Virus record (IMG/VR): IMGVR_UViG_2541047882_000006
Direction: 5' to 3' (one strand)
Source of the DNA: a virus
Taxonomy: Duplodnaviria > Heunggongvirae > Uroviricota > Caudoviricetes
DNA length: 33,679 bases
A model generated the notes under the pieces. That model searched no databases. It saw only the letters and a program-made list of their open reading frames with translations, and was not told where the DNA came from. Positions within the stretch are counted from its first letter, which is position 1. Each line of letters opens with the position of its first letter. The translations under genes and the position numbers were made by a program. This document shows positions 9,329 to 33,679 of this stretch, piece after piece.

Positions 9329-10385
9329 GGCTTTGTTGAATAAATCAGATTTCGGGTAAGTCTCCCCCGTAGCGGGTTGTGTTTTCAGGCAATACGCACG
9401 CTTTCAGGCATACCTGCTTTCGTCATTTTGTTCAGCGCTCGTACCAGGGCCATAGCCTCCGCAACCTGACCATCGTAGTCACGCAGCGTCAGTGAACCCC
9501 CGAACAGCTGTTTTACCCGGTACATCGCCGTTTCCGCTATCGAGCGACGGTTGTAATCTGTTGTCCATTTCCACCGCGCATTACTCCCGGTCATTCGCTG
9601 ATTAGCCACTGCACTGTTACGGTCTGCATATTCACCGGGCCAGTAACCCGCACCTTTTCGGGGAGGGATAAGGGCGCTGATTTTCTTACGCCGCAGTTCA
9701 TCGTGACAGAGCCGGGTGTCGTAAGCGCCGTCTGCCGATGCTGCCCTGATTTTTCTGTGAGTCTGCCGGATAAGACCCGGGAAGGCTTCTGAGTCCGTCA
9801 CATTGTTCAGCGACAGGTCTGCACAGATGATTTCATGTGTTTTACTGTCAACGGCGAGATGCAGCTTACGCCAGATACGGCGGCGTTCCTGGCCATGCTT
9901 TTTGACTTTCCACTCGCCTTCACCGAAGACCTTCAGCCCGGTGGAATCAATTACCAGGTGTGCGATTTCACCCCGGGTGGGCGTTTTGAAACTGACATTA
10001 ACCGACTTTGCGCGCTTGCTGACACTGGTGTAATCCGGGCAGCGCAACGGAACATTCATCAGTGTAAAAATGGAATCAATAAAACCCTGTGCAGCCCGCA
10101 GGGTCAACCTGAACACGCGTTTAATGACCAGAACGGTGGTGATGGCGAGATCAGAATAGCGCTGAGGTCTTCCCCGTGATGAAGGCGTTGTCGACTCATA
10201 CCAGGCCTGAATGGCTTCATCATCCAGCCAGAAAGTTATGGAGCCACGGTTGATGAGGGCTTTATTGTAGGTGGGCCAGTTGGTGATTTTGAACTTTTGC
10301 TTTGCCACGGAACGGTCTGCGTTGTCGGGAAGATGCGTGATCTGATCCTTCAACTCAGCAAAAGTTCGATTTATTCAACAAAGCC
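9329..10385 (-). mobile_element. IS903 (IS5 family) insertion sequence, complete
   Basis: 1057 bp bounded by perfect 18-bp inverted repeats GGCTTTGTTGAATAAATC (9329-9346) and GATTTATTCAACAAAGCC (10368-10385); one transposase ORF; 9-bp direct target duplication; length and repeats match IS903 as I recall it. Confidence 0.85.
9385..10308 (-). CDS. IS903 transposase (DDE, IS5 family)
   Basis: Track ORF 9385-10353 (322 aa from a TTG). Starting at the in-frame GTG (VAKQKFKITNWPTYNK) gives 307 aa; C-terminus MTKAGMPESVRIA recognised as IS903 transposase. Confidence 0.8.
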   Translation of the reverse strand: MAKQKFKITNWPTYNKALINRGSITFWLDDEAIQAWYESTTPSSRGRPQRYSDLAITTVLVIKRVFRLTLRAAQGFIDSIFTLMNVPLRCPDYTSVSKRAKSVNVSFKTPTRGEIAHLVIDSTGLKVFGEGEWKVKKHGQERRRIWRKLHLAVDSKTHEIICADLSLNNVTDSEAFPGLIRQTHRKIRAASADGAYDTRLCHDELRRKKISALIPPRKGAGYWPGEYADRNSAVANQRMTGSNARWKWTTDYNRRSIAETAMYRVKQLFGGSLTLRDYDGQVAEAMALVRALNKMTKAGMPESVRIA

Positions 10386-10394
10386 ATAACCTCA
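10386..10394. repeat. 9-bp target site duplication ATAACCTCA (right copy) flanking IS903
   Basis: See left copy. Confidence 0.8.
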
Positions 10395-10443
10395 TTCAAT
10401 GCGTCCCCCTGTAGTGCAGTACCACAGGGGGAATAACGGAAAA

Positions 10444-10872
10444 TCAACTAATCGCATCAGCACTGGCTTTTGCGATCACGGCAGTCGGGGAGCATTTTTT
10501 TCTGGTTGTCGGCTTTTTACCCTGAGCAACAAGCATCGCAAACTTAGCCTGCTGGTCAGAAATGCCGAATTCATCGGGACAGAACGAAAATTCCTCCGCG
10601 TCGCCCTCATTCAGGCCCGCATCGAATACTGGCTTTTTTTCCTGAGATTTTTCGTTCCGCTTTTGTGCAGTCTGCGCAGATTTTTTCTGCGCACTTTTTT
10701 GCGCAGTTTTGCACATTTCTGTCTGCGCATTTTTCGGAGTTTTTTTGATGTAACGACGGGCTGTTGCGTAATTCAGTCCCCTTGCTTCACACCATGCCAC
10801 CGGAGATATACCGGAGCGGGTGTATTCAGCAATATACTCCTGCTGCAACGCCCCCCAGTCCGGTCTGCTCAT
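10444..10872 (-). CDS. small-terminase-like DNA-binding protein (resembles Rac YdaY region)
   Basis: 142-aa track ORF; N-terminal helix-turn-helix-like segment (ISPVAWCEARGLNYATARRYIKK) followed by a basic, low-complexity tail. Assignment by sequence impression only. Confidence 0.45.
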   Translation of the reverse strand: MSRPDWGALQQEYIAEYTRSGISPVAWCEARGLNYATARRYIKKTPKNAQTEMCKTAQKSAQKKSAQTAQKRNEKSQEKKPVFDAGLNEGDAEEFSFCPDEFGISDQQAKFAMLVAQGKKPTTRKKCSPTAVIAKASADAIS

Positions 10873-12916: not shown

Positions 12917-14374
12917 TTAGGAGCGCCAAAAAAAACCTGAAAACAATATAATAACAGGATAAATTTCAAGGCGACCAAGAATCATAGCTATGCACATTAA
13001 ACATTTTGCAATGTCATTAAGCACTCCGAATGACGATGCAGTAGCCCCAAAACCTAATCCCATATTATTAATACATGCAGCCACTGTTGCAAATGATGTA
13101 AGAAAATCATATCCCATACCATTTAACACCAGTATAAAAAACACCGTGAAGAGAGTATAAAGAAAAAAGAAACTCCATACAGACCTCATTACACGATCTG
13201 TAACTATCTTCCCTCCTACATTTACACTCAACAACGCTCTGGGATGAGAAAGCTGATTTATCTCGTGTTTGCTTTGTTTGAAAAGTATAAGAAATCGAAG
13301 TGACTTAATTCCACCACAAGTTGAACCTATACATCCCCCAAAGAAACTTGACAACAGCAAAAACACTATCGTATGCGTGGGCCAACTTGCATAATCCTGC
13401 GTAGCTAAACCATTATCAGTGAGCATGGAGCTGGCAAGAAAAAACGAATGAATAAAACTTCCATGCAAGTCATACATACCTATATGCCAGACCTGGAAAG
13501 AGGTAACAATGATCACCCCTAAGGCTATTAACAGAAAGAAACGAAGTTCAATATCTCTGATTAAAGGTTTTATCGTTTTCCTGCTAATAACAATATACCA
13601 AAGAGTGAAGTTGAAAGCCGATAGCAGGGAAAAAGAACCAGCCACCAGCTCAACCAAATAGTTATTAAAATATCCGATACTCTCGCTATGAGTTGAGAAA
13701 CCACCAAGCGAAACTGTGGAAATCCCGTGACAAATAGCATCAAACAAAGGCATTCCTGCAAGTCTATAACAGACAATACAAGCAATACCTAATAAAGAAT
13801 AAGTTATCCACAGTGTCCGTGACGTATCGGCCAGGCGGGGAGTGAGTTTGTCATCCTTAAATGGCCCCGGCATTTCTGACTGATAAAGCTTTGCACCACC
13901 AATACCCAATAATGGCAATACAGCAACCGCCAGAACAATAACTCCTAAACCACCTATAAAATTTAACTGTGACCGATAGTACAAATATGCCCGAGGTAAT
14001 GAACTAACATCATCAATTACAGTTGCTCCTGTTGTTGTTATTCCAGAAACCCCTTCAAACAGAGCATCAATGAACGTTAAATTAAGTTCTGAGTCAATCC
14101 ATAAAGGGAATGCACTAATAACAGAAAACAAAATCCAAAACATTACAATTATAATAAACCCATCACGGGTACGTAATTGAATGCCAGATTTCTTAGTTGT
14201 ATACCACGCTCCGCCACCAATGCAAAAAAATATAACGAAAGTTATAAAGAAAACGAACAGGCTTTTTTCTTTATAAAACAATGCTACAACCATTGGTGGC
14301 AACATTGAAAGACTATAGAGCCAAACCAGGAACCCACACATATGAGTAACAACTCTTACATGAGATGTATTCAT
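12917..14374 (-). CDS. trkG: Trk-system potassium uptake protein TrkG (prophage-borne TrkH paralog)
   Basis: Track ORF 12917-14392; start placed at MNTSHVRVVTHMCGFLVW to match K-12 TrkG (485 aa as recalled); polytopic membrane protein; AT-rich. Confidence 0.9.
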   Translation of the reverse strand: MNTSHVRVVTHMCGFLVWLYSLSMLPPMVVALFYKEKSLFVFFITFVIFFCIGGGAWYTTKKSGIQLRTRDGFIIIVMFWILFSVISAFPLWIDSELNLTFIDALFEGVSGITTTGATVIDDVSSLPRAYLYYRSQLNFIGGLGVIVLAVAVLPLLGIGGAKLYQSEMPGPFKDDKLTPRLADTSRTLWITYSLLGIACIVCYRLAGMPLFDAICHGISTVSLGGFSTHSESIGYFNNYLVELVAGSFSLLSAFNFTLWYIVISRKTIKPLIRDIELRFFLLIALGVIIVTSFQVWHIGMYDLHGSFIHSFFLASSMLTDNGLATQDYASWPTHTIVFLLLSSFFGGCIGSTCGGIKSLRFLILFKQSKHEINQLSHPRALLSVNVGGKIVTDRVMRSVWSFFFLYTLFTVFFILVLNGMGYDFLTSFATVAACINNMGLGFGATASSFGVLNDIAKCLMCIAMILGRLEIYPVIILFSGFFWRS

Positions 14375-14511
14375 ATCTAAATATTCTTTCAATTATAACC
14401 ACCTTGCTGCAATATTATGATTATACTGTATAAAATTTAACTCCTCTTAGATCTTACTTCACTGTTCCTTATGAAACAATCATCAAAATGAATCATATTG
14501 TAGTTAAGATT

Positions 14512-15936: not shown

Positions 15937-16332
15937 CTAACCTCGCATGTCAAAGCCAGATTTCTGAAAATCTCTGTAGACTTCCGGATTGTTGAAGGCC
16001 GGAAATTTGGCTTTATGAGCTGCGGACTTTATCGCTTCGCAATAGGCTTTATCACCGTTACTGGTAGATATTTTTAACGCCGTGCCATCCTGAGAGAATT
16101 CCATATGCAACCTGCATTTTTTCCCTTTCCAGTTATGCGGCTCATCAAGTTTGGCATTAATTGCAGCTCTGATTCCCCGCGCTTGCGCCCCCCATTCATC
16201 CTGATCATCCCAGCGTCCTGAACTGCAACTACCTGTAGCAGTAGTTTTGTGGCAATCTGAAGGGTGTAAAGGTGTGCATCCCGCAACAAAACCGACCCAA
16301 AAAGTCAACATAACGATTTTCTTTAATCCCAC
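15937..16332 (-). CDS. lipoprotein with TolA domain III-like C-terminal domain (paralog 2, divergent)
   Basis: 131-aa track ORF; signal peptide and lipobox (FVAGC); C-terminal ~80 aa share the two-Cys pattern and the PEVY-x-F motif with the upstream paralog and with TolA domain III. Confidence 0.6.
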   Translation of the reverse strand: MGLKKIVMLTFWVGFVAGCTPLHPSDCHKTTATGSCSSGRWDDQDEWGAQARGIRAAINAKLDEPHNWKGKKCRLHMEFSQDGTALKISTSNGDKAYCEAIKSAAHKAKFPAFNNPEVYRDFQKSGFDMRG

Positions 16333-16482: not shown

Positions 16483-16911
16483 TCAGGGTTTAAAATCCAG
16501 CACCCCATTTTGAAATACTTTATATACTTCCGGCGAAGGGGGGGCAGGTATATCAGCATTCTTTATCGCATTCATCGCTTCACGACATAAATCGAGGTCT
16601 CCACTTTCTCTTTTAACCTCCAGTAGAAGGCCATTCGGGGCCATATGCATTCTCAGTGTACACTCTTTTCCTGAATACTTACTCGCATCCCCGAACTGTT
16701 TTTCGATGGCGCTCTTGATTTGATGGGCATACAGACGGATATCCTCACTAACATCAGAAGTACGTTCAGATGAACTCACATACTGTGTCTCTATTGCTTT
16801 ATCGGAGTAATATGATGTACGGTCATGATAATTTGTCGATACAGCATCAGTGCACCCGATAATAATCCCACTAATAATCAACGTAAGAATTGATGCGCTA
16901 CGAAAACCCAT
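16483..16911 (-). CDS. lipoprotein with TolA domain III-like C-terminal domain (paralog 1)
   Basis: 142-aa track ORF; lipobox IIIGC; C-terminus YAHQIKSAIEKQFGDASKYSGKECTLRMHMAPNGLLLEVKRESGDLDLCREAMNAIKNADIPAPPSPEVYKVFQNGVLDFKP aligns closely with the E. coli TolA C-terminus (...YAGQIKSAIESKFYDASSYAGKTCTLRIKLAPDGMLLDIKPEGGDPALCQAALAAAKLAKIPKPPSQAVYEVFKNAPLDFKP) as I recall it. Confidence 0.7.
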   Translation of the reverse strand: MGFRSASILTLIISGIIIGCTDAVSTNYHDRTSYYSDKAIETQYVSSSERTSDVSEDIRLYAHQIKSAIEKQFGDASKYSGKECTLRMHMAPNGLLLEVKRESGDLDLCREAMNAIKNADIPAPPSPEVYKVFQNGVLDFKP

Positions 16912-18499: not shown

Positions 18500-18786
18500 A
18501 AATGACCTTTCTTTCTCCAGATTTCTTGTGTGCGAAAAACCCCTTCAGCATGCATCAGGCGCAATTCTTCTTTGGTGTAATCGCTGGTTTTTACCCGCCC
18601 GTCGATTAGATCGTGGCATGAGCTACAGGCTATCGCCGCCTGCATATCGTGTGGTTTTGTCGCTGTTCCGCACGTCCCCGCCAGCCTGTAATGCGCCAGC
18701 ACAGAGGTTTCGGGATTGTGATTGCAGTAGCCAGGGATTCTGATCTGGCACATCTGGCCTTTAGCCGCTTTACGTAAATTCACCAT
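18496..18786 (-). CDS. YbcO-like nin-region protein (DUF1364-type, Cys-rich)
   Basis: 96-aa track ORF; LRKAAKGQMCQIRIPGYCNHNPETSVLAH...IACSSCHD resembles DLP12 YbcO as recalled. Confidence 0.6.
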   Translation of the reverse strand: MVNLRKAAKGQMCQIRIPGYCNHNPETSVLAHYRLAGTCGTATKPHDMQAAIACSSCHDLIDGRVKTSDYTKEELRLMHAEGVFRTQEIWRKKGHL

Positions 18787-19385
18787 TACGCAAACTCCAG
18801 TAGTTGTGCGGCCACATTTTCAACTTCCTCCTGAGAGGAGAATTTACGGAACAGAATCCAGTTCCACAGCACATTCAGTACAGATTTATAAACCTGCTGA
18901 AACTCGACTTCGTCCATATTCGCAAAAGCGATGGATTTTGCCCGACGCCCACGGCTACCGTCCGGATAAATATGCTCGGTGTAAAATCCGGCCTGAATGG
19001 TTACCCACTCGCGGAAAGCCTCAAACGACTTTAGCAACGCCGTATCCCGGGTTCTACGAGTCGCAACGGTGTTAAGGTATTGCTCTGCGGCATCACTCAG
19101 GGCTGATGTGTGTTCCCGACCAACTGATTCGCACAGGTAATCCACGAAACCAGACAGCAGTTCTCGTTCGCGAGGCGTGATCGCCCCACCGACCGGAGTC
19201 CAGTAATCGAATCCCAGTTGCAGGAGTTTGAAAAAACGCTTGTGGAATGCGTAGTTACGCACACGCTTAAAGTCTGCGTGTATCCACTCACCTATTTTGA
19301 TTTGATGCAGAAAATCGCAACTCTCCGGCGTCGCCGGGAGAAGTAAACCAGAAGAGGTTTGTTTGACCAGTTGTATATGCGCCAT
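18786..19385 (-). CDS. nin-region phage protein (DUF1367-like), hypothetical
   Basis: 199-aa track ORF, stop overlapping the downstream gene start; family assignment from memory, uncertain. Confidence 0.45.
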   Translation of the reverse strand: MAHIQLVKQTSSGLLLPATPESCDFLHQIKIGEWIHADFKRVRNYAFHKRFFKLLQLGFDYWTPVGGAITPRERELLSGFVDYLCESVGREHTSALSDAAEQYLNTVATRRTRDTALLKSFEAFREWVTIQAGFYTEHIYPDGSRGRRAKSIAFANMDEVEFQQVYKSVLNVLWNWILFRKFSSQEEVENVAAQLLEFA

Positions 19386-19747: not shown

Positions 19748-19762
19748 AACACACCCACAAAT

Positions 19763-19792
19763 AAATCAAACCCGCTACAGCGGGTTTGATTT
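19763..19792. terminator. bidirectional intrinsic terminator between the small ORF (+) and the S8 protease gene (-)
   Basis: Perfect 13-bp inverted repeat AAATCAAACCCGC-taca-GCGGGTTTGATTT, flanked by A/T-rich sequence; convergent genes on either side. Confidence 0.55.
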
Positions 19793-19801
19793 ATATAGTT
19801 G

Positions 19802-22066
19802 TTATACGGAAACTGGCACACGAGCAGGCAATGGATAGTGAGCCCAGTTATTAGCATTTAAAGCTCTTACACCATCAGCATAAACTTGTGTGTTTCCATC
19901 TAATGATTTTAAAGTTACTACAATAGTTACAGGTAAAGGCTCCATTAAGGCCGGTTCATTCGCTCTCAACGTTGTTTTAGCCTGAAGAGCCCAGTTACCC
20001 GAAGTAATTCCTTTATTAAATGCCTTGCGATGAATTTTTACTGGTGACCACTTTCCACCATGCTCAATTTGAGCTCTCTCATATCCAGATTGACCGTTTT
20101 CTCCTTCCATAGGCACTTTTCCTTTTATAGTATTATTCTCAATTAAGCCAAAACTTAGCTCTACGTTCGCGCGAACATATTCACTGCCGGCATTAGGGTT
20201 TAGTGGTGGTGCATATGCAGCAGTAATTACAATCTCACCTTTAAATTTTCCATTTTGAATAAGTGCCGATGGTATGGGATAGTTTTCCTTTCTCCACCTC
20301 ACCCCAGGAACCAAGAATGTTTGGAAAATCAGAGTAAACCTATCATCACTATCATATAAGGTCTCAATAACCTCATTAGGAATTCCCGCTCCCAAATAGC
20401 GTCTTTCACTTGGCGAGTAATCAGGAGAAGATAATTGAGCGGAATGAATTAATAATGCTTTAATCAATGATGGTGAAACATTAAAGTCTGAATTAGTGGC
20501 TATTCTCTGCCATGTATGCGCAGCTAAACTTGCCACAATTGGAGCAGCAAAACTAGTACCAAAATTAGAGCAAAGCCTATTATCTGGCCCTACGACCTTT
20601 AAACTGCTTGCTCCTACATTCCAAGGTCTATGAACCCCACCGCCAGCATGGATTATATCTGGCTTTGGAGTAAATACAGGCCCAGGGCCACGACGAGTAT
20701 ATGGTGTCGGTGTTCCAATTTCACTTAAAGCATCATTAGCTTCCATATGAGAAACTGAACCAACTGTTAGTGCTCGGACTGACTCTCCAGGAGAGGAAAT
20801 TAAATCAGCACCTCCAAGCGGATCAGGATTTGGCCATGTACGTATAGGTTCATCTACATAATTACCTGCAGCAACTACAAACAAAATACCAAATTTATCG
20901 CTGAGCCGATCTAACTCCATCGCAAAATCACTAAACATCTGCTCATTACATGGTCCGCCTCCCAAAGACAAATTCCAGACTTTTATATCTGGTCTTTTAT
21001 TTACAGCATCTGCTAGCCTCAGAATTAAATCTGATATATAAGATCCATTTTCATCTAAAGCACAAACATCATGGATTTTAGATTTTGTATCAGGAATCCA
21101 TGGATGATTGTCATTTAAAAAATGAGCGCCTGATATCAATGAAGACACCATAGTCCCATGTTCATAACTCGTATCAGGAGGAATTACGTATGTTTCCCTA
21201 CTCACTACCCAAGGAGTAATTGTTGCCGCGATGGGGCTTACCCCAGTGTCAAATACAGCAACAATGGGTAATTCTTCTGATGGTACGGGAAAGCTATTTG
21301 TTTCAATGCCAACAGAATCACTTACACTAACCGGGAATGCTGAATATTTTGGTTCTGGAATTAACGTTCTTATACCCGGGTAATCAATGAGAATGTCTAA
21401 TATATATCTATCACTTGGGGATAAATCCATTATCCTTAATAAGGGAAGACCACATTTTTGTCTAATTTCATCATATTTAACTCCGTATTGTTCTAATATA
21501 GAAATAACGTTTTCATAGTTGTTGTAAGTTGCATCTTCACCTGTGTACTCAAATAGTCGTACAAGGATGTTTGATGATTCAAACAAACCATCAGTGCCTC
21601 CCGGAACCTTCCTATTCTCATCCCAAGGTTCAATGCGCTCAATCGCGCTTAGATTAGCCAAAATCGCTTTAATATTCCGATTTAAAATGACTGACTCTAA
21701 TACGTCAAAACAGCCGGCATGAGCAGCAACCAACATTTCATCTATTTTGGCATGACCGGCATTTTGCAATCCAGCCTCTTGAGCAATTTTGTTCGGCCTA
21801 TGCGTTTTGGCTATTCCCTGGTCTCTTAATTTGAAAACCAAAGTACCCAAGCTTCCAGGGTACTCTGAAAGTTTGGATTCTAAATAATGTTTACTGGTTG
21901 TTAAATTTCTTACTAGCCCTTGTCTATATTCGGCTGTTACATCAACCAATACCTTTGCCCCACCGCCAGCGTTTACTATTGCACCCAAGTCACTACTGGA
22001 AAAAGGGATTCTTAACGTTGGGTTTGTAACTTTTGCGTTACTAAACTGTGTACCCCTTCTGCTCAT
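19802..22066 (-). CDS. subtilisin-like serine protease (peptidase S8) with large N- and C-terminal extensions; IetS-like
   Basis: 754-aa track ORF; S8 motifs in order D (VAVFDTGVS, ~aa 273), H (YEHGTMVSS, ~303), N (VVAAGNY, ~402), S (GTSFAAPIVASLAAH, ~505); no N-terminal signal peptide; AGGAG ribosome-binding site; start overlaps the upstream ATPase gene by 26 nt. Confidence 0.8.
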   Translation of the reverse strand: MSRRGTQFSNAKVTNPTLRIPFSSSDLGAIVNAGGGAKVLVDVTAEYRQGLVRNLTTSKHYLESKLSEYPGSLGTLVFKLRDQGIAKTHRPNKIAQEAGLQNAGHAKIDEMLVAAHAGCFDVLESVILNRNIKAILANLSAIERIEPWDENRKVPGGTDGLFESSNILVRLFEYTGEDATYNNYENVISILEQYGVKYDEIRQKCGLPLLRIMDLSPSDRYILDILIDYPGIRTLIPEPKYSAFPVSVSDSVGIETNSFPVPSEELPIVAVFDTGVSPIAATITPWVVSRETYVIPPDTSYEHGTMVSSLISGAHFLNDNHPWIPDTKSKIHDVCALDENGSYISDLILRLADAVNKRPDIKVWNLSLGGGPCNEQMFSDFAMELDRLSDKFGILFVVAAGNYVDEPIRTWPNPDPLGGADLISSPGESVRALTVGSVSHMEANDALSEIGTPTPYTRRGPGPVFTPKPDIIHAGGGVHRPWNVGASSLKVVGPDNRLCSNFGTSFAAPIVASLAAHTWQRIATNSDFNVSPSLIKALLIHSAQLSSPDYSPSERRYLGAGIPNEVIETLYDSDDRFTLIFQTFLVPGVRWRKENYPIPSALIQNGKFKGEIVITAAYAPPLNPNAGSEYVRANVELSFGLIENNTIKGKVPMEGENGQSGYERAQIEHGGKWSPVKIHRKAFNKGITSGNWALQAKTTLRANEPALMEPLPVTIVVTLKSLDGNTQVYADGVRALNANNWAHYPLPARVPVSV

Positions 22067-23195
22067 ATGCTCCTGACTCCTTCAGAATGTTTGAAATTAC
22101 TCTTGATGTAAGTTTGTACAAATTAGCAAGAACTCTGATAGAAAATAATTTTTTATCTTTAGAACGTAACCAACGAATTTCATCTTCGTAAGTGCTTAAA
22201 TTTACACCTTCCATAAGCGATTGAGCAAGATACAAACGCCTATACAATTTGTGGTGATTTATCACACTTGCACCTTCAATAACTGCATCCCTACGTGCAT
22301 CCAAGCTCACCTGTTCAATTATTGCTCCGGATAATCCTTCCGATTTTCTTGATAAATCACTTAAATCTAGATCGCTACATATCATATTCTTTAAACGATT
22401 TTTCCAAATTAACTCTCTCTGATGTATGTCAGGCAGAGGCATTGGAATTCTGAAGCTAAATCGCCTCCAGATTGCAGGATCCAGAAGTTGCTCATGGTTA
22501 GTTGAGGCAATAATTACCGTATCCTCTGATGCCGCATCCATATTCTGCAATAGTGAAATGACAACTCGCTGAAGCTCACCTATATCTCTCTCATTACCTC
22601 TTGCTCCAGCTAAAGCATCAAATTCGTCTAAAAAAAGCACTGATGGCCTCTGCATTACATAATCGAAAACCTGTCTAAGATTTTTGCTGGTTTGTCCCAA
22701 TAAACTACTAATCAAAGTATCGCAACGCACTGTAAGAAGTGGAAAATCTAAGCGGGTAGCGATGTACTTAGATAACATAGTCTTACCTGTTCCTGGCTTT
22801 CCATACACGAGCATACGACTCGGCAATGCTGCATCAGCTTTAACAAACTCATCATAACGTTGAACATTAGTGATAAACTCTTCAACACGGGTACTGATTG
22901 CTGCAGGCAGAAAAATCTCTGAACTGTCTAATTTAGGATAACTGACATCAACAGTGTTGAGTCGACTATCAATATCTACCGGTAATGAGCCCAGAGATAT
23001 CCCACCTCCAGCCCTTTGAGCTCCTGCCAACGCCTGGGGAGCTCTAAGCAACCTTTCTCTTATCATTCTGGCTTGCTTGACCTCCCCTTTTTGTTCGAGC
23101 TTATCTGCCAGCAACCCAGCATAATTACTAGCCATCGAAGCATTTGCCTTTGTTGCACCTTCAATGATTTTTAACACTTCTGATAAATAATCCAT
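22041..23195 (-). CDS. AAA+ ATPase; IetA-like
   Basis: 384-aa track ORF; Walker A GKPGTGKT (~aa 132-139), Walker B VLFLDEFD (~185-192), sensor-1 IIASTNH, arginine pair WRRF; ~125-aa N-terminal and ~130-aa C-terminal non-ATPase regions. Confidence 0.8.
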   Translation of the reverse strand: MDYLSEVLKIIEGATKANASMASNYAGLLADKLEQKGEVKQARMIRERLLRAPQALAGAQRAGGGISLGSLPVDIDSRLNTVDVSYPKLDSSEIFLPAAISTRVEEFITNVQRYDEFVKADAALPSRMLVYGKPGTGKTMLSKYIATRLDFPLLTVRCDTLISSLLGQTSKNLRQVFDYVMQRPSVLFLDEFDALAGARGNERDIGELQRVVISLLQNMDAASEDTVIIASTNHEQLLDPAIWRRFSFRIPMPLPDIHQRELIWKNRLKNMICSDLDLSDLSRKSEGLSGAIIEQVSLDARRDAVIEGASVINHHKLYRRLYLAQSLMEGVNLSTYEDEIRWLRSKDKKLFSIRVLANLYKLTSRVISNILKESGAYEQKGYTV

Positions 23196-23388
23196 TCAAC
23201 ACTCCCACAACAAAAAGCCACAGCAATCAAAAAATGAGCACGCAGAATCAAAATACTCTCTAATCGTAACGCATTTTGAGATTTTTGATACGTTTTTTTG
23301 GGATTATGTAACGCCAAATGGTCATTTTGTGTCAGAAAAATAAATCTTAGTACCGAGAATATGTAGCTTCCATCCTTCATCGTTCTAT

Positions 23389-23835
23389 TCATCCCTGATC
23401 TCCAAGCCTCTCTCGAAAACCATTCTGATAAAACGCCAGCACACGCTGCATAACTTCGCTCTTCCGGCACTCGCGACAGATTATGTTCAGACGCCTGTCG
23501 TAGCGGCGTATTTCTCCGTCTGGTAATGACCAGATAAGGTCCGGATCAACCACAGATGGTTTCTTCACCTTTGCCCTAGATAGTTTTTTGCGGGCATTTT
23601 GCCAGTCCTTACGAGCCTGTTCAGACGGGAATAACCCGTAACCAGAGTTGTATACATCGCCACTGGCAACCAGCTCTCTGGCGAGAACGCTCATCAGATA
23701 TCTTGTCGCACCTGTCTTGGCTTCCAGTTGCCGTAACGTCTCGCGCCCACTCCGGCGTACTAGTTCAACAACCTGCCCTTTAATTTTTTCCCGCTCTTCT
23801 TGTGTAAATACTTTTGCCATAAGCGCCTCCGGCAA
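23389..23835 (-). CDS. hypothetical protein (nin region)
   Basis: 148-aa track ORF on the same strand upstream of the ATPase gene; backbone-like GC; no recognised motifs. Confidence 0.4.
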   Translation of the reverse strand: MPEALMAKVFTQEEREKIKGQVVELVRRSGRETLRQLEAKTGATRYLMSVLARELVASGDVYNSGYGLFPSEQARKDWQNARKKLSRAKVKKPSVVDPDLIWSLPDGEIRRYDRRLNIICRECRKSEVMQRVLAFYQNGFRERLGDQG

Positions 23836-23996
23836 TCACTTTTCCGATACAACACGGCGGGAAGAATCAGTAATCTGTCGAACAATATCCCGGTGCTTGT
23901 TCAGCTCCCGCAGCGCGGCGCAGACTCGCTCCCACTTCTGGACATGATTTTTCGCCCGACGCAGTTCACGGTTTGCCATATGCAGCGATGGTAAAA

Positions 23997-24248
23997 TCAG
24001 GTTATCCGCTTGCGTTTCAGTAAACGATGGCAACGACTGCACAATGTCCGCCACAGTTTCTGTTTTAATATCTTCCTGTGTTGCAGCTTCCTGTACTGGC
24101 AGGTGTACGCGCTTTTATCAACGAAACCAGCCTTTTTCAGTTCCCATAGTTCGTTCAGCACTTCTTCACGGCTGATATCAAGTCGCGCAGCAAGTTCTAT
24201 GGATGTAGCTTTTCCCATTGCTTTCAGTGCGTCAAAAACAGTCTCCAT
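23997..24248 (-). CDS. hypothetical small winged-helix-like protein
   Basis: Track ORF 23997-24299; start moved to [43 protein letters not shown], preceded by GGGAGA; HTH-like segment. Confidence 0.4.
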
Positions 24249-24270
24249 TAAATTTTTCTCCCGGTAAAAA

Positions 24271-24810
24271 TTACTTCGCAATTCCTGGCTGGACGACATT
24301 CGGACGCCAGCTCTCCCAGTTAAAATTCACCCATCGCCCGCCGTTCATGGTCATGCGATCCATAATCCTCTCGCCGAGCAATGTTTTCATGGCCTCATAA
24401 TTCAGGTTTGTCAGCATCCCCACGCTGCGCATCGACGCTGTCCGGCGATCAACAATCTGGTGCAGCACCACCTGCTCGTTTTTTGTCTCGCGCTGAATGC
24501 CAATTTCATCAAGAACCAGCAGATCCACTTGGCACAGTTCCCGCAAAAATTTTTCGCCTGATTGCCCGTCGTCATAGCTGGCGTGTAGGGCACTCATGAC
24601 ATCAGCCACGGTAACCACAATCACTGTCTGGCCATCTTTCAGCAGGCGATTCCCGATAGCCGCCGCCAGATGGTTTTTTCCGGTACCAGGTTTTCCGCTG
24701 AACGCAAAATTTGTACATCGAAGATGCAGAGTCGGTGACGCAGCTCGCGCGGAAGGATTGCCAGAATTGCTGGGATCAGCTTCTGAATTTTTTCTCTTTG
24801 CGTTTTCGTT
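24271..24810 (-). pseudogene. DnaC-like helicase loader (Rac YdaV-type), 5'-truncated
   Basis: Frame open from a stop at 24811-24813 with no ATG/TTG and no GTG before 24624. Walker A FSGKPGTGKNHLAAAI and the downstream segment (DLLVLDEIG, IVDRR, GMLTN, GERIMDRM) closely match E. coli DnaC as I recall it, but only ~22 codons lie upstream of Walker A and do not resemble DnaC. Confidence 0.65.
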
Positions 24811-32443: not shown

Positions 32444-33679
32444 ATGTCTAAATTACCAACAGGTGTCGAGATTAGAGGTAGATACATTCGCATCTGGTTC
32501 ATGTTTCGAGGAAAACGATGTCGGGAAACATTAAAAGGCTGGGAGATTACAAACAGTAATATTAAAAAGGCCGGAAATTTAAGAGCGCTGATAGTTCATG
32601 AAATAAACTCCGGTGAATTTGAGTATTTAAGACGTTTTCCCCAGTCCAGCACTGGGGCAAAAATGGTGACAACGAGAGTCATAAAAACGTTCGGAGAGCT
32701 TTGTGATATCTGGACAAAAATTAAAGAGACAGAGTTAACAACAAACACAATGAAGAAAACGAAATCACAATTAAAAACACTCAGAATAATAATTTGTGAA
32801 AGTACCCCGATATCACATATTCGTTATAGCGATATCTTAAACTACCGGAATGAACTGCTGCATGGAGAAACGCTTTACCTGGATAATCCAAGATCCAACA
32901 AAAAAGGAAGAACCGTGCGCACAGTTGATAACTATATCGCCCTGCTCTGTTCGCTGTTGCGTTTTGCGTATCAGTCGGGATTTATATCAACCAAACCATT
33001 TGAAGGAGTAAAAAAATTACAGCGAAACAGAATAAAGCCTGATCCGTTATCTAAAACAGAATTCAATGCATTAATGGAAAGTGAAAAAGGACAGAGCCAG
33101 AACTTGTGGAAATTTGCCGTTTACTCAGGACTTCGTCACGGGGAACTGGCAGCTCTGGCGTGGGAGGATGTGGATCTCGAAAAGGGAATAGTGAATGTCA
33201 GAAGAAACCTGACGATACTTGATATGTTCGGTCCCCCAAAAACAAATGCCGGGATCCGAACAGTAACACTACTGCAGCCTGCTCTTGAAGCACTGAAGGA
33301 GCAATACAAACTGACCGGGCATCATCGCAAAAGCGAAATCACCTTTTATCATCGGGAGTACGGCAGAACCGAAAAGCAAAAACTGCATTTTGTTTTCATG
33401 CCCAGGGTGTGTAACGGAAAACAAAAACCTTATTACTCGGTAAGCAGTTTGGGGGCAAGGTGGAATGCAGCAGTAAAACGTGCTGGTATTCGCCGCCGTA
33501 ATCCGTACCATACGCGACATACTTTTGCCTGCTGGCTGTTGACGGCAGGAGCGAACCCGGCATTTATAGCCAGCCAAATGGGGCATGAAACTGCGCAGAT
33601 GGTGTATGAAATTTACGGTATGTGGATTGATGACATGAACGACGAACAGATAGCCATGTTGAATGCGCGGTTATCGTAG
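32444..33679 (+). CDS. intR: tyrosine site-specific integrase IntR
   Basis: 411-aa track ORF, same length as K-12 IntR; C-terminal catalytic region (HTRHTFACWLL, HETAQMVYEIYG); the window ends at its stop codon. Confidence 0.9.
   Translation: MSKLPTGVEIRGRYIRIWFMFRGKRCRETLKGWEITNSNIKKAGNLRALIVHEINSGEFEYLRRFPQSSTGAKMVTTRVIKTFGELCDIWTKIKETELTTNTMKKTKSQLKTLRIIICESTPISHIRYSDILNYRNELLHGETLYLDNPRSNKKGRTVRTVDNYIALLCSLLRFAYQSGFISTKPFEGVKKLQRNRIKPDPLSKTEFNALMESEKGQSQNLWKFAVYSGLRHGELAALAWEDVDLEKGIVNVRRNLTILDMFGPPKTNAGIRTVTLLQPALEALKEQYKLTGHHRKSEITFYHREYGRTEKQKLHFVFMPRVCNGKQKPYYSVSSLGARWNAAVKRAGIRRRNPYHTRHTFACWLLTAGANPAFIASQMGHETAQMVYEIYGMWIDDMNDEQIAMLNARLS

Follow-up and report, generated by a model that had tools for sequence, protein, structure and literature searches.

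The locus raises the question of whether two adjacent genes in the window (the whole stretch of 33,679 nt that was analysed), one for an AAA+ ATPase and one for a subtilase, form an IetAS anti-phage system and, if so, whether they are genes of the phage itself or cargo carried by it. The first-pass annotation had placed both genes on the minus strand, with products of 384 and 754 aa and an overlap of 26 nt, and these coordinates proved exact:

22041-23195, minus strand: ietA (iteA in the NCBI spelling), encoding a 384-aa AAA+ ATPase.
19802-22066, minus strand: ietS (iteS), encoding a 754-aa cytoplasmic S8 subtilase.
22041-22066, minus strand: the 26 nt in which the 3' end of ietA and the 5' end of ietS overlap.

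Within ietA, just upstream of the start of ietS, Shine-Dalgarno-like sequences (AAGGAG and AGGAG) can be found, and because of their position translational coupling of the two genes appears likely. The overlap is kept in four genera, being 26 nt in the Kosakonia locus and in that of a second lambdoid prophage and 29 nt in Aeromonas.

When compared with profile models both proteins gave matches along their length, IetA to the PADLOC model PDLC02196 (E 8.9e-143, residues 1-374 on model positions 1-371 of 374) and IetS to PDLC02197 (E 1.7e-300, residues 12-753 on model positions 3-748 of 749). The cut-offs of the NCBIfam equivalogs were passed as well, by a narrow margin for IetA (IteA_antiphage, NF042959; 526.6 bits against a cut-off of 510) and with 1042.8 bits against 900 for IetS (IteS_antiphage, NF042956). 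The genes are adjacent and co-oriented, the AAA+ ATPase gene followed by the S8 peptidase gene as in the gene definition of IetAS, and identical DNA is named iteA/iteS in RefSeq. The assignment to IetAS, previously made on architecture only, is borne out by these matches and by the RefSeq naming, and at the level of sequence the two genes are confirmed as a textbook copy of the known IetAS (IteA/IteS) anti-phage system. Compared with the IetAS/IteAS systems of Gao et al. 2020, the locus shares gene order, protein lengths, full-length profile matches, intact catalytic residues and carriage on a mobile element; no differences were found, and by its profiles the locus is a member. The locus is in this respect ordinary, since public genome annotation already carries the IetAS name. 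A CBASS-associated TRIP13 ATPase was considered for the first gene and rejected, TRIP13 scoring 58 bits compared with 474 bits for IetA and no HORMA or cyclase genes being located nearby.

IetA gave a match to the Pfam AAA family with E 2.6e-30 and contains, as had been read from its translation, an intact Walker A (GKPGTGKT, with K138), Walker B (VLFLDE, with D190/E191), sensor-1 (N233) and arginine pair (R244/R245), the catalytic residues being invariant across 46 IetA homologues. The classical-clade AAA core of the protein, lid included, lies at about aa 98-330; a bundle of three helices precedes it at the N-terminus (aa 2-62), and an additional unit of three helices follows at the C-terminus (aa 336-375). 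Pfam searches gave no match for aa 1-117, with no MIT or other N-terminal domain even at E<=10. Pore loop 1 consists of Leu165-Leu166-Gly167 (in SSLLGQTS), invariant or nearly so in the 46 homologues, and so does not have the aromatic-hydrophobic-Gly motif of processive classical-clade AAA unfoldases; processive unfolding of IetS by IetA is therefore not assured. The same loop sets IetA apart from Vps4, spastin, katanin, FtsH and p97/VAT, which have an aromatic residue in pore loop 1 and lack the C-terminal three-helix unit, while the partner of IetA is a subtilase.

In IetS the complete S8 set that had been proposed, D273 (in DTG), H303 (in HGT), N402 and S505 (in GTSFAAP), is intact and invariant across 53 IetS homologues, and the match to Pfam Peptidase_S8 has E 5.6e-26. 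Neither a signal peptide, whose absence had been noted earlier, nor a transmembrane segment was found, the maximum Kyte-Doolittle mean over 19 residues being 1.48. In the predicted structure the S8 core spans about aa 268-560. The part before it begins with a helix, followed by two modules of beta-alpha-beta-beta-alpha-beta type at aa 74-147 and aa 167-237, and a beta-sandwich takes up the C-terminus at about aa 576-740. Pfam gave nothing for aa 1-265 or aa 561-754, and a search by sequence revealed no close structure of either IetA or IetS in the PDB. The second module, aa 167-237, is positioned as the prodomain is in subtilisin and has the secondary structure beta-alpha-beta-beta-alpha-beta. 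Structural alignment of IetS to pro-forms covers 304-368 residues (313 of 355 for pro-subtilisin E, 304 for PCSK9 with its prodomain), compared with only about 232-236 residues when the mature catalytic domains alone are used (thermitase, proteinase K and the PCSK9 catalytic chain). The predicted structure thus suggests a prodomain-like module (aa 167-237) before the protease core. Pro-subtilisin E, Tk-SP, KP-43 and PCSK9 likewise have an S8 core that is preceded by a prodomain-like module and followed by a beta-sandwich, but IetS differs from pro-subtilisins in being cytoplasmic, lacking a signal peptide and having an extra N-terminal part of ~165 aa, and the identity is only 18-25%.

The founding pair, that of pTiC58 (NC_003065, 97873-98859 for IetA and 98863-101373 for IetS), has the AAA ATPase gene directly 5' of the S8 peptidase gene, as here, and both of its proteins match the PADLOC IetA and IetS models. 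The two IetA proteins show 36% identity over 211 residues (E 1e-42), whereas the IetS proteins are barely alignable (25% over 247 residues, which is part of the S8 domain; E 3e-5) and differ in length, 836 aa in pTiC58 compared with 754 aa here. IetA of pTiC58 has 328 aa, lacks the C-terminal unit found at aa 336-375 here and has a canonical pore loop, Phe-Met-Gly, instead of Leu-Leu-Gly, and the genes abut where those of the present locus overlap by 26 nt. The two pairs would accordingly seem to belong to the same superfamily but to different subfamilies, with a distant relation. IetA and IetS modules are also shared with ietHAS (Liu-DS4; PMC13069673), a three-gene variant with an SNF2-type helicase, in which defence needs protease activity and the cloning of an ietA mutant failed (PMC13069673). 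No helicase gene is present here, the neighbours of the cassette being the phage backbone genes DUF977 and DUF1367.

The borders of the cassette and of the slot in which it is situated are as follows:

23389-23820, minus strand: DUF977 gene, which ends the replication module and forms the upstream edge of the slot, from RefSeq annotation and homology with other prophages.
23196-23424, minus strand: upstream sequence specific to the cassette, GC 0.35, its boundary set by blastn against four other prophage loci.
19761-19794, no strand assigned: hairpin resembling an intrinsic terminator, with a 15-bp stem (core AAACCCGC-loop-GCGGGTTT), closing the cassette.
18786-19385, minus strand: DUF1367 gene, with which the nin-like/Q-antiterminator block begins and which forms the downstream edge of the slot.

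The upstream spacer is AT-rich, as had been said of it, and only its proximal ~110 bp (23196-23305, block CGTATCAAAAATCTCAAAATGCGTTACGATT) are conserved with the Kosakonia copy. This block is likely to be a regulatory or promoter region; a consensus scan of 23196-23424 found no sigma-70 promoter that would serve expression in the lysogen. Homology to other prophages restarts at 23425, within the 3' end of the DUF977 gene. An ATG open reading frame of 73 codons in the spacer (23171-23389), overlapping the start of ietA and labelled 'kinase (fragment)' in the phage record ON470595, was rejected as a third gene because PGAP leaves it uncalled, because six other ietA loci have no gene called upstream and because the sequence conservation with Kosakonia ends ~110 bp upstream of the ietA ATG.

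At the other end the hairpin starts 7 nt past the ietS stop codon and is T-rich on either side. It folds strongly on both strands, the coding strand giving -26 kcal/mol (z -6.3) and the opposite strand -23 kcal/mol (z -6.5), which agrees with the bidirectional terminator proposed earlier. It is kept after ietS in Kosakonia and in the second lambdoid prophage, with a compensatory change of T-A to C-G in the stem, and was not found in a Rac-like prophage without IetAS. The downstream "spacer" of 416 bp is for the most part (19386 to about 19750) prophage backbone, common to a Rac-like prophage with other cargo, and within this spacer the hairpin alone belongs to the cassette. The IetAS module is a self-contained unit of ~3.65 kb in which a short leader of regulatory sequence precedes ietA and ietS and a terminator follows them. 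Its higher AT content, earlier judged by eye, has now been computed: GC is 0.400 in the cassette compared with 0.488 in each flank, and GC3 is 0.32 in ietA and 0.27 in ietS compared with about 0.5 in neighbouring genes. The base composition of the cassette is foreign.

The slot is part of a Rac-family lambdoid prophage of E. coli, in which it separates the replication genes from the nin/Q block, and the presence of ietAS in E. coli prophages has been noted before (10.1101/2022.08.21.504612). A near-identical cassette was found in 78 of 5,426 complete E. coli genomes, in the same slot every time. In related prophages the slot holds DUF262, YfgM, Hok and IS421, or Dcm with an O-methyltransferase and an ATPase, or QueH and HokD, or many small open reading frames. 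IetAS is therefore variable cargo and not a core phage gene, as the first-pass annotation had expected for Rac-like prophages. The annotation had also given K-12 Rac as lacking a counterpart at this position; this is correct, since in presumed K-12 genomes the flank query finds a match at its DUF1627/ydaV edge only, and the cassette is absent there because the whole region is missing. A synthetic empty-site query with the flanks directly joined was found in no E. coli genome, meaning that the slot is always occupied or that the flanks are mosaic. The same module is present elsewhere, in an integrase island of Kosakonia, the second lambdoid prophage and a chromosomal island of Aeromonas, while only one of 50,697 phage records contains a close homologue. 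The surrounding prophage is decayed: head and tail genes over about 9.4 kb have given way to an IS5-family insertion, and DUF1627 and ydaV/ydaU carry deletions. Both ietA and ietS are intact.

No paper on the mechanism or structure of IetAS was found in the literature searched. PMC13069673, citing Yamamoto 2009 and Gao 2020, describes homologues in which IetS is a toxic protease effector and IetA an ATP-dependent antitoxin. In Bacillus cereus ietAS causes abortive infection and is triggered by a single phage protein, SPbeta yosG (10.1101/2022.08.27.505566), and the ietAS of E. coli ECOR52, when cloned and tested, gave limited protection by itself (10.1101/2022.08.21.504612). Protection that depends on the active sites has been reported for homologues only (PMC13069673; 10.1101/2022.08.27.505566; 10.1101/2022.08.21.504612). 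By analogy with homologues such as the distant pTiC58 pair, and from the predicted structures, IetS would resemble a zymogen, being a cytoplasmic subtilase with the prodomain-like module (aa 167-237) and a linker (aa 238-267) before the active site. IetA would be an AAA ATPase of the classical clade, its N-terminal helical bundle being of the adaptor type, and would spend ATP either to keep IetS in a latched state or to remodel it. A trigger encoded by the phage would upset this restraint, and the released IetS would cut cellular proteins so that the infected cell halts growth before phage progeny are made. The locus is very probably a bona fide IetAS system, carried as accessory prophage cargo, with a protease, IetS, that would be restrained by IetA and would act through abortive infection.

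The pair could instead be an addiction module, stabilising the prophage by post-segregational killing, with phage defence secondary or absent in this copy. Its history gives this some weight, IetAS having first been described as a toxin-antitoxin system for plasmid stability on a Ti plasmid (Yamamoto 2009, as cited in PMC13069673), as do the two intact genes inside a decayed prophage and the limited protection from ECOR52 ietAS by itself (10.1101/2022.08.21.504612). The pTiC58 pair is however distantly related, IetS most of all, whereas the subfamily present here is the basis of the defence models, and both proteins score above curated 'anti-phage' equivalog cut-offs. Moreover, one role does not preclude the other, and survival in a dead prophage suits a host-beneficial defence equally, leaving addiction as the main role unlikely.

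It is considerably more doubtful that IetA and IetS work together as an ATP-dependent degradation machine in the manner of FtsH, Lon or the proteasome, in which IetA unfolds phage proteins for IetS and the host is spared. Subtilases are monomers with an open cleft and do not form self-compartmentalised rings, toxicity is reported for IetS and a protective role for IetA (PMC13069673), abortive infection is the phenotype of the B. cereus system (10.1101/2022.08.27.505566), and the pore loop of IetA is without the aromatic residue that is typical of processive unfoldases. That the genes serve the ordinary phage life cycle, for example as maturation protease and chaperone, fits their location within a prophage and their co-orientation with early and late genes but is effectively refuted by their absence from most related prophages, which have unrelated genes in the same slot, by their occurrence outside phages on integrase and chromosomal islands, by the foreign base composition and by the near absence of close homologues from phage records.

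For an IetAS system with a restrained protease a more specific model can be put forward, tentatively and as less likely than not. IetS may keep an uncleaved I9-like prodomain (aa 167-237) and linker over its active site, while a Vps4-like IetA, with its adaptor-type bundle, Leu-Leu-Gly pore loop and subfamily-specific C-terminal three-helix unit, would act as an ATP-driven latch and not as a processive unfoldase. Release of the latch would then come from a phage protein, and the pair might in addition be an addiction module that preserves the dead Rac prophage.

IetAS already has a name and models in PADLOC and NCBIfam, RefSeq annotates it automatically, E. coli homologues have been tested, and as a discovery the locus matters little. 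It nevertheless illustrates clearly the defence/cargo slot in Rac-type lambdoid prophages and shows a defence module outlasting its prophage, and it offers residue-level hypotheses on the prodomain-like module of IetS and the non-aromatic pore loop of IetA.

Two minus-strand genes overlapping by 26 nt were recovered in the cassette, with the same extents and overlap as in the first-pass annotation:

22041-23195, minus strand: iteA (ietA), encoding the 384-aa AAA+ ATPase IetA
19802-22066, minus strand: iteS (ietS), encoding the 754-aa S8 peptidase IetS
19761-19794: hairpin with a perfect 15-bp stem, 7 nt past the iteS stop

The PADLOC models matched both proteins over their whole length (IetA, E 8.9e-143; IetS, E 1.7e-300) and the curated cut-offs of the NCBI equivalogs "anti-phage ATPase IteA" (526.6 bits, cut-off 510) and "S8 family anti-phage peptidase IteS" (1042.8 bits, cut-off 900) were passed, and the names iteA and iteS are already in use for the genes in the RefSeq annotation of E. 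coli. These results confirm at sequence level an identity that had been proposed from architecture only: the cassette is IetAS, intact, mobile cargo, and this identity is already known.

Both Pfam families named in the first-pass annotation were matched, AAA in IetA (E 2.6e-30) and Peptidase_S8 in IetS (E 5.6e-26), and every motif listed there was found. These are, in IetA, Walker A GKPGTGKT (K138), Walker B VLFLDE (D190/E191), sensor-1 N233 and R244/R245, and in IetS the catalytic set D273, H303, N402 and S505, all invariant in alignments of 46 IetA and 53 IetS homologues. Hydropathy revealed no signal peptide or membrane segment in either protein; for IetS the lack of a signal peptide had been claimed before. 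The AT-richness noted by eye was borne out by calculation, with a GC of 0.400 for the cassette and 0.488 for each flank, and a GC3 of 0.32 for iteA and 0.27 for iteS compared with ~0.5 for adjacent phage genes. A 73-codon ATG ORF overlapping the iteA start (23171-23389, minus strand), annotated as "kinase (fragment)" in phage record ON470595, is probably spurious as a third gene since it has no PGAP call and is not conserved at other IetAS loci.

The window is a Rac-family prophage adjoining ttcA and bearing racR, kilR, recET, xisR/intR and trkG. In transcription order the cassette is preceded by the replication module (ydaU, ydaV, DUF1627, DUF977) and followed by the DUF1367, DUF1364 and DUF1133 genes, the last annotated in ON470595 as antitermination protein Q, a gene order that makes the earlier label "nin/late-regulatory region" a fair one. 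Cassette DNA at least 99% identical was found in 78 of 5,426 complete E. coli genomes, in all 78 in the same slot between DUF977 and DUF1367, and the deposited phage genome vB_EcoS-683R6 carries a near-identical copy with the gene order of the window. Homology to related prophages without IetAS ends at 23425, in the last DUF977 codons, and at ~19750-19775, at the hairpin; these breaks define a mobile unit of ~3.65 kb comprising a 229-bp leader, ietA, ietS and the terminator. The downstream terminator ascribed to the cassette was found, but the 416-bp "downstream spacer" is mostly prophage backbone outside it.

Variable cargo was confirmed by neighbourhood comparison, related prophages holding other genes in the slot: a DUF262 protein, YfgM, Hok and IS421; a Dcm methyltransferase, an O-methyltransferase and an ATPase; QueH and HokD; or a run of small ORFs. 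Three such loci (L002-L004) are:

L002 8407-13702: slot with DUF262 protein, YfgM and Hok
L003 8400-13554: slot with Dcm methyltransferase and an oppositely oriented ATPase/O-methyltransferase pair
L004 5737-6795: slot with QueH and HokD

The slot behaves as a cargo hotspot. The genes in these three loci are candidate defence or toxin genes. A search for both flanks adjoining found no empty slot among E. coli genomes. In genomes of K-12 size the flank match was limited to the DUF1627/ydaV edge, and K-12 Rac lacks the cassette, in line with the first-pass annotation, because the entire region is missing.

Three settings beyond E. coli share the module and a gene overlap of 26-29 nt: an integrase island in Kosakonia, a different lambdoid prophage in which the module (78% identical) occupies the DUF977-to-DUF1367 slot, and a chromosomal island in Aeromonas. 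The hairpin has a folding energy of -26 kcal/mol (z -6.3) on the coding strand; for the opposite strand the figure is -23 kcal/mol (z -6.5). It accompanies the module, with a compensatory substitution in its stem, and in the leader E. coli-Kosakonia conservation spans ~110 bp only. The founding pair on the Ti plasmid pTiC58, whose record leaves the genes unnamed, was inferred from position as the plasmid's only ATPase-plus-S8 pair, and it also matches the PADLOC IetA and IetS models. Since its IetA is 36% identical to that of the window across the AAA core (E 1e-42) and its IetS aligns weakly (25% over 247 residues, E 3e-5), the window IetAS probably belongs to the enterobacterial/proteobacterial defence subfamily and is no close relative of the founder. 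Pore loop 1 of the window IetA, SSLLGQTS (aa 163-170; window 22690-22713), is invariant or nearly so in the 46 homologues, whereas pTiC58 IetA, which is 56 aa shorter and lacks the C-terminal unit, aligns there with the canonical aromatic form, TKFMGET.

The predicted IetS model is confident (pLDDT 84.6, pTM 0.88), and the following elements were delimited in the two proteins:

IetS aa 45-68: predicted long helix
IetS aa 74-147 and aa 167-237: two predicted beta-alpha-beta-beta-alpha-beta modules
IetS linker: low-confidence in part (pLDDT <50 at aa 246-250)
IetS thereafter: predicted S8 core, then C-terminal beta-sandwich
IetA aa 336-375 (window 22071-22190): C-terminal three-helix unit, FSIRVLANLYKLTSRVISNILKE

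The IetA unit is helix-turn-helix-like in appearance and drew no Pfam hit at cut-offs up to E 10; a possible binding target is the conserved leader that precedes ietA. No solved structure close to IetA or IetS was found.

When comparing the window with SCU-104, an E. coli strain with an intact relative of the prophage and a 100% identical cassette, a region of ~1.2 kb was found in place of the tail, head and terminase genes that span ~9.4 kb in SCU-104:

9329-10506 (ORF 9385-10353), minus strand: IS5-type DDE transposase (Pfam DDE_Tnp_1_5, E 4.5e-39)

With these genes absent and the transposase in their place the prophage is unable to produce virions, although ietAS remains intact. Two further deletions relative to SCU-104, at 24099/24100 and 24717, one of ~350 bp within the DUF1627 gene and one of ~1.3 kb taking parts of ydaV and ydaU, have broken the replication module, which explains the fragmented ORFs at 23836-24624. 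The 411-aa integrase ORF (32444-33679, plus strand) is intact in the window and frameshifted in SCU-104; Rac copies have decayed at differing places. A second low-GC island of the prophage is trkG (12917-14392, minus strand; GC 0.377, GC3 0.32), already known as a potassium-transporter gene that Rac carries as cargo. Two minus-strand genes (15937-16332 and 16483-16911), located between the lysis cassette and the Q-like gene, bear the annotation TolA or TolA C-terminal domain protein in the RefSeq entry of identical sequence.

As recounted in a 2026 paper (PMC13069673), IetAS was first described on pTiC58 as a plasmid-stability toxin-antitoxin pair, with protease toxin and ATPase antitoxin; its description as an anti-phage system came later (Gao 2020). 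The same paper regards the anti-phage mechanism as still unknown and reports that defence by a three-gene ietHAS variant needs protease activity and that cloning of an ietA mutant failed. B. cereus ietAS shows abortive-infection behaviour and becomes toxic on expression of the SPbeta gene yosG (10.1101/2022.08.27.505566), while cloned ietAS of E. coli ECOR52 gave limited protection on its own (10.1101/2022.08.21.504612). No structural or mechanistic paper on IetAS was found in the literature searched. By analogy with these homologues IetS would be the toxic effector, IetA an ATP-dependent restraint on it, and a phage protein would set off abortive infection: restraint by IetA would be lost upon infection and the IetS protease freed. 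IetS is suggested to be zymogen-like, with IetA latching or remodelling it and no processive unfolding. An addiction module for the prophage is an unlikely alternative, and such a role and defence are not mutually exclusive. A direct ATP-dependent degradation machine is considerably more doubtful, and an ordinary phage life-cycle function is effectively refuted by the cargo analysis.

The cassette is a tidy example of the lambdoid cargo slot, and the locus supplies testable structural hypotheses for the mechanism of IetAS.
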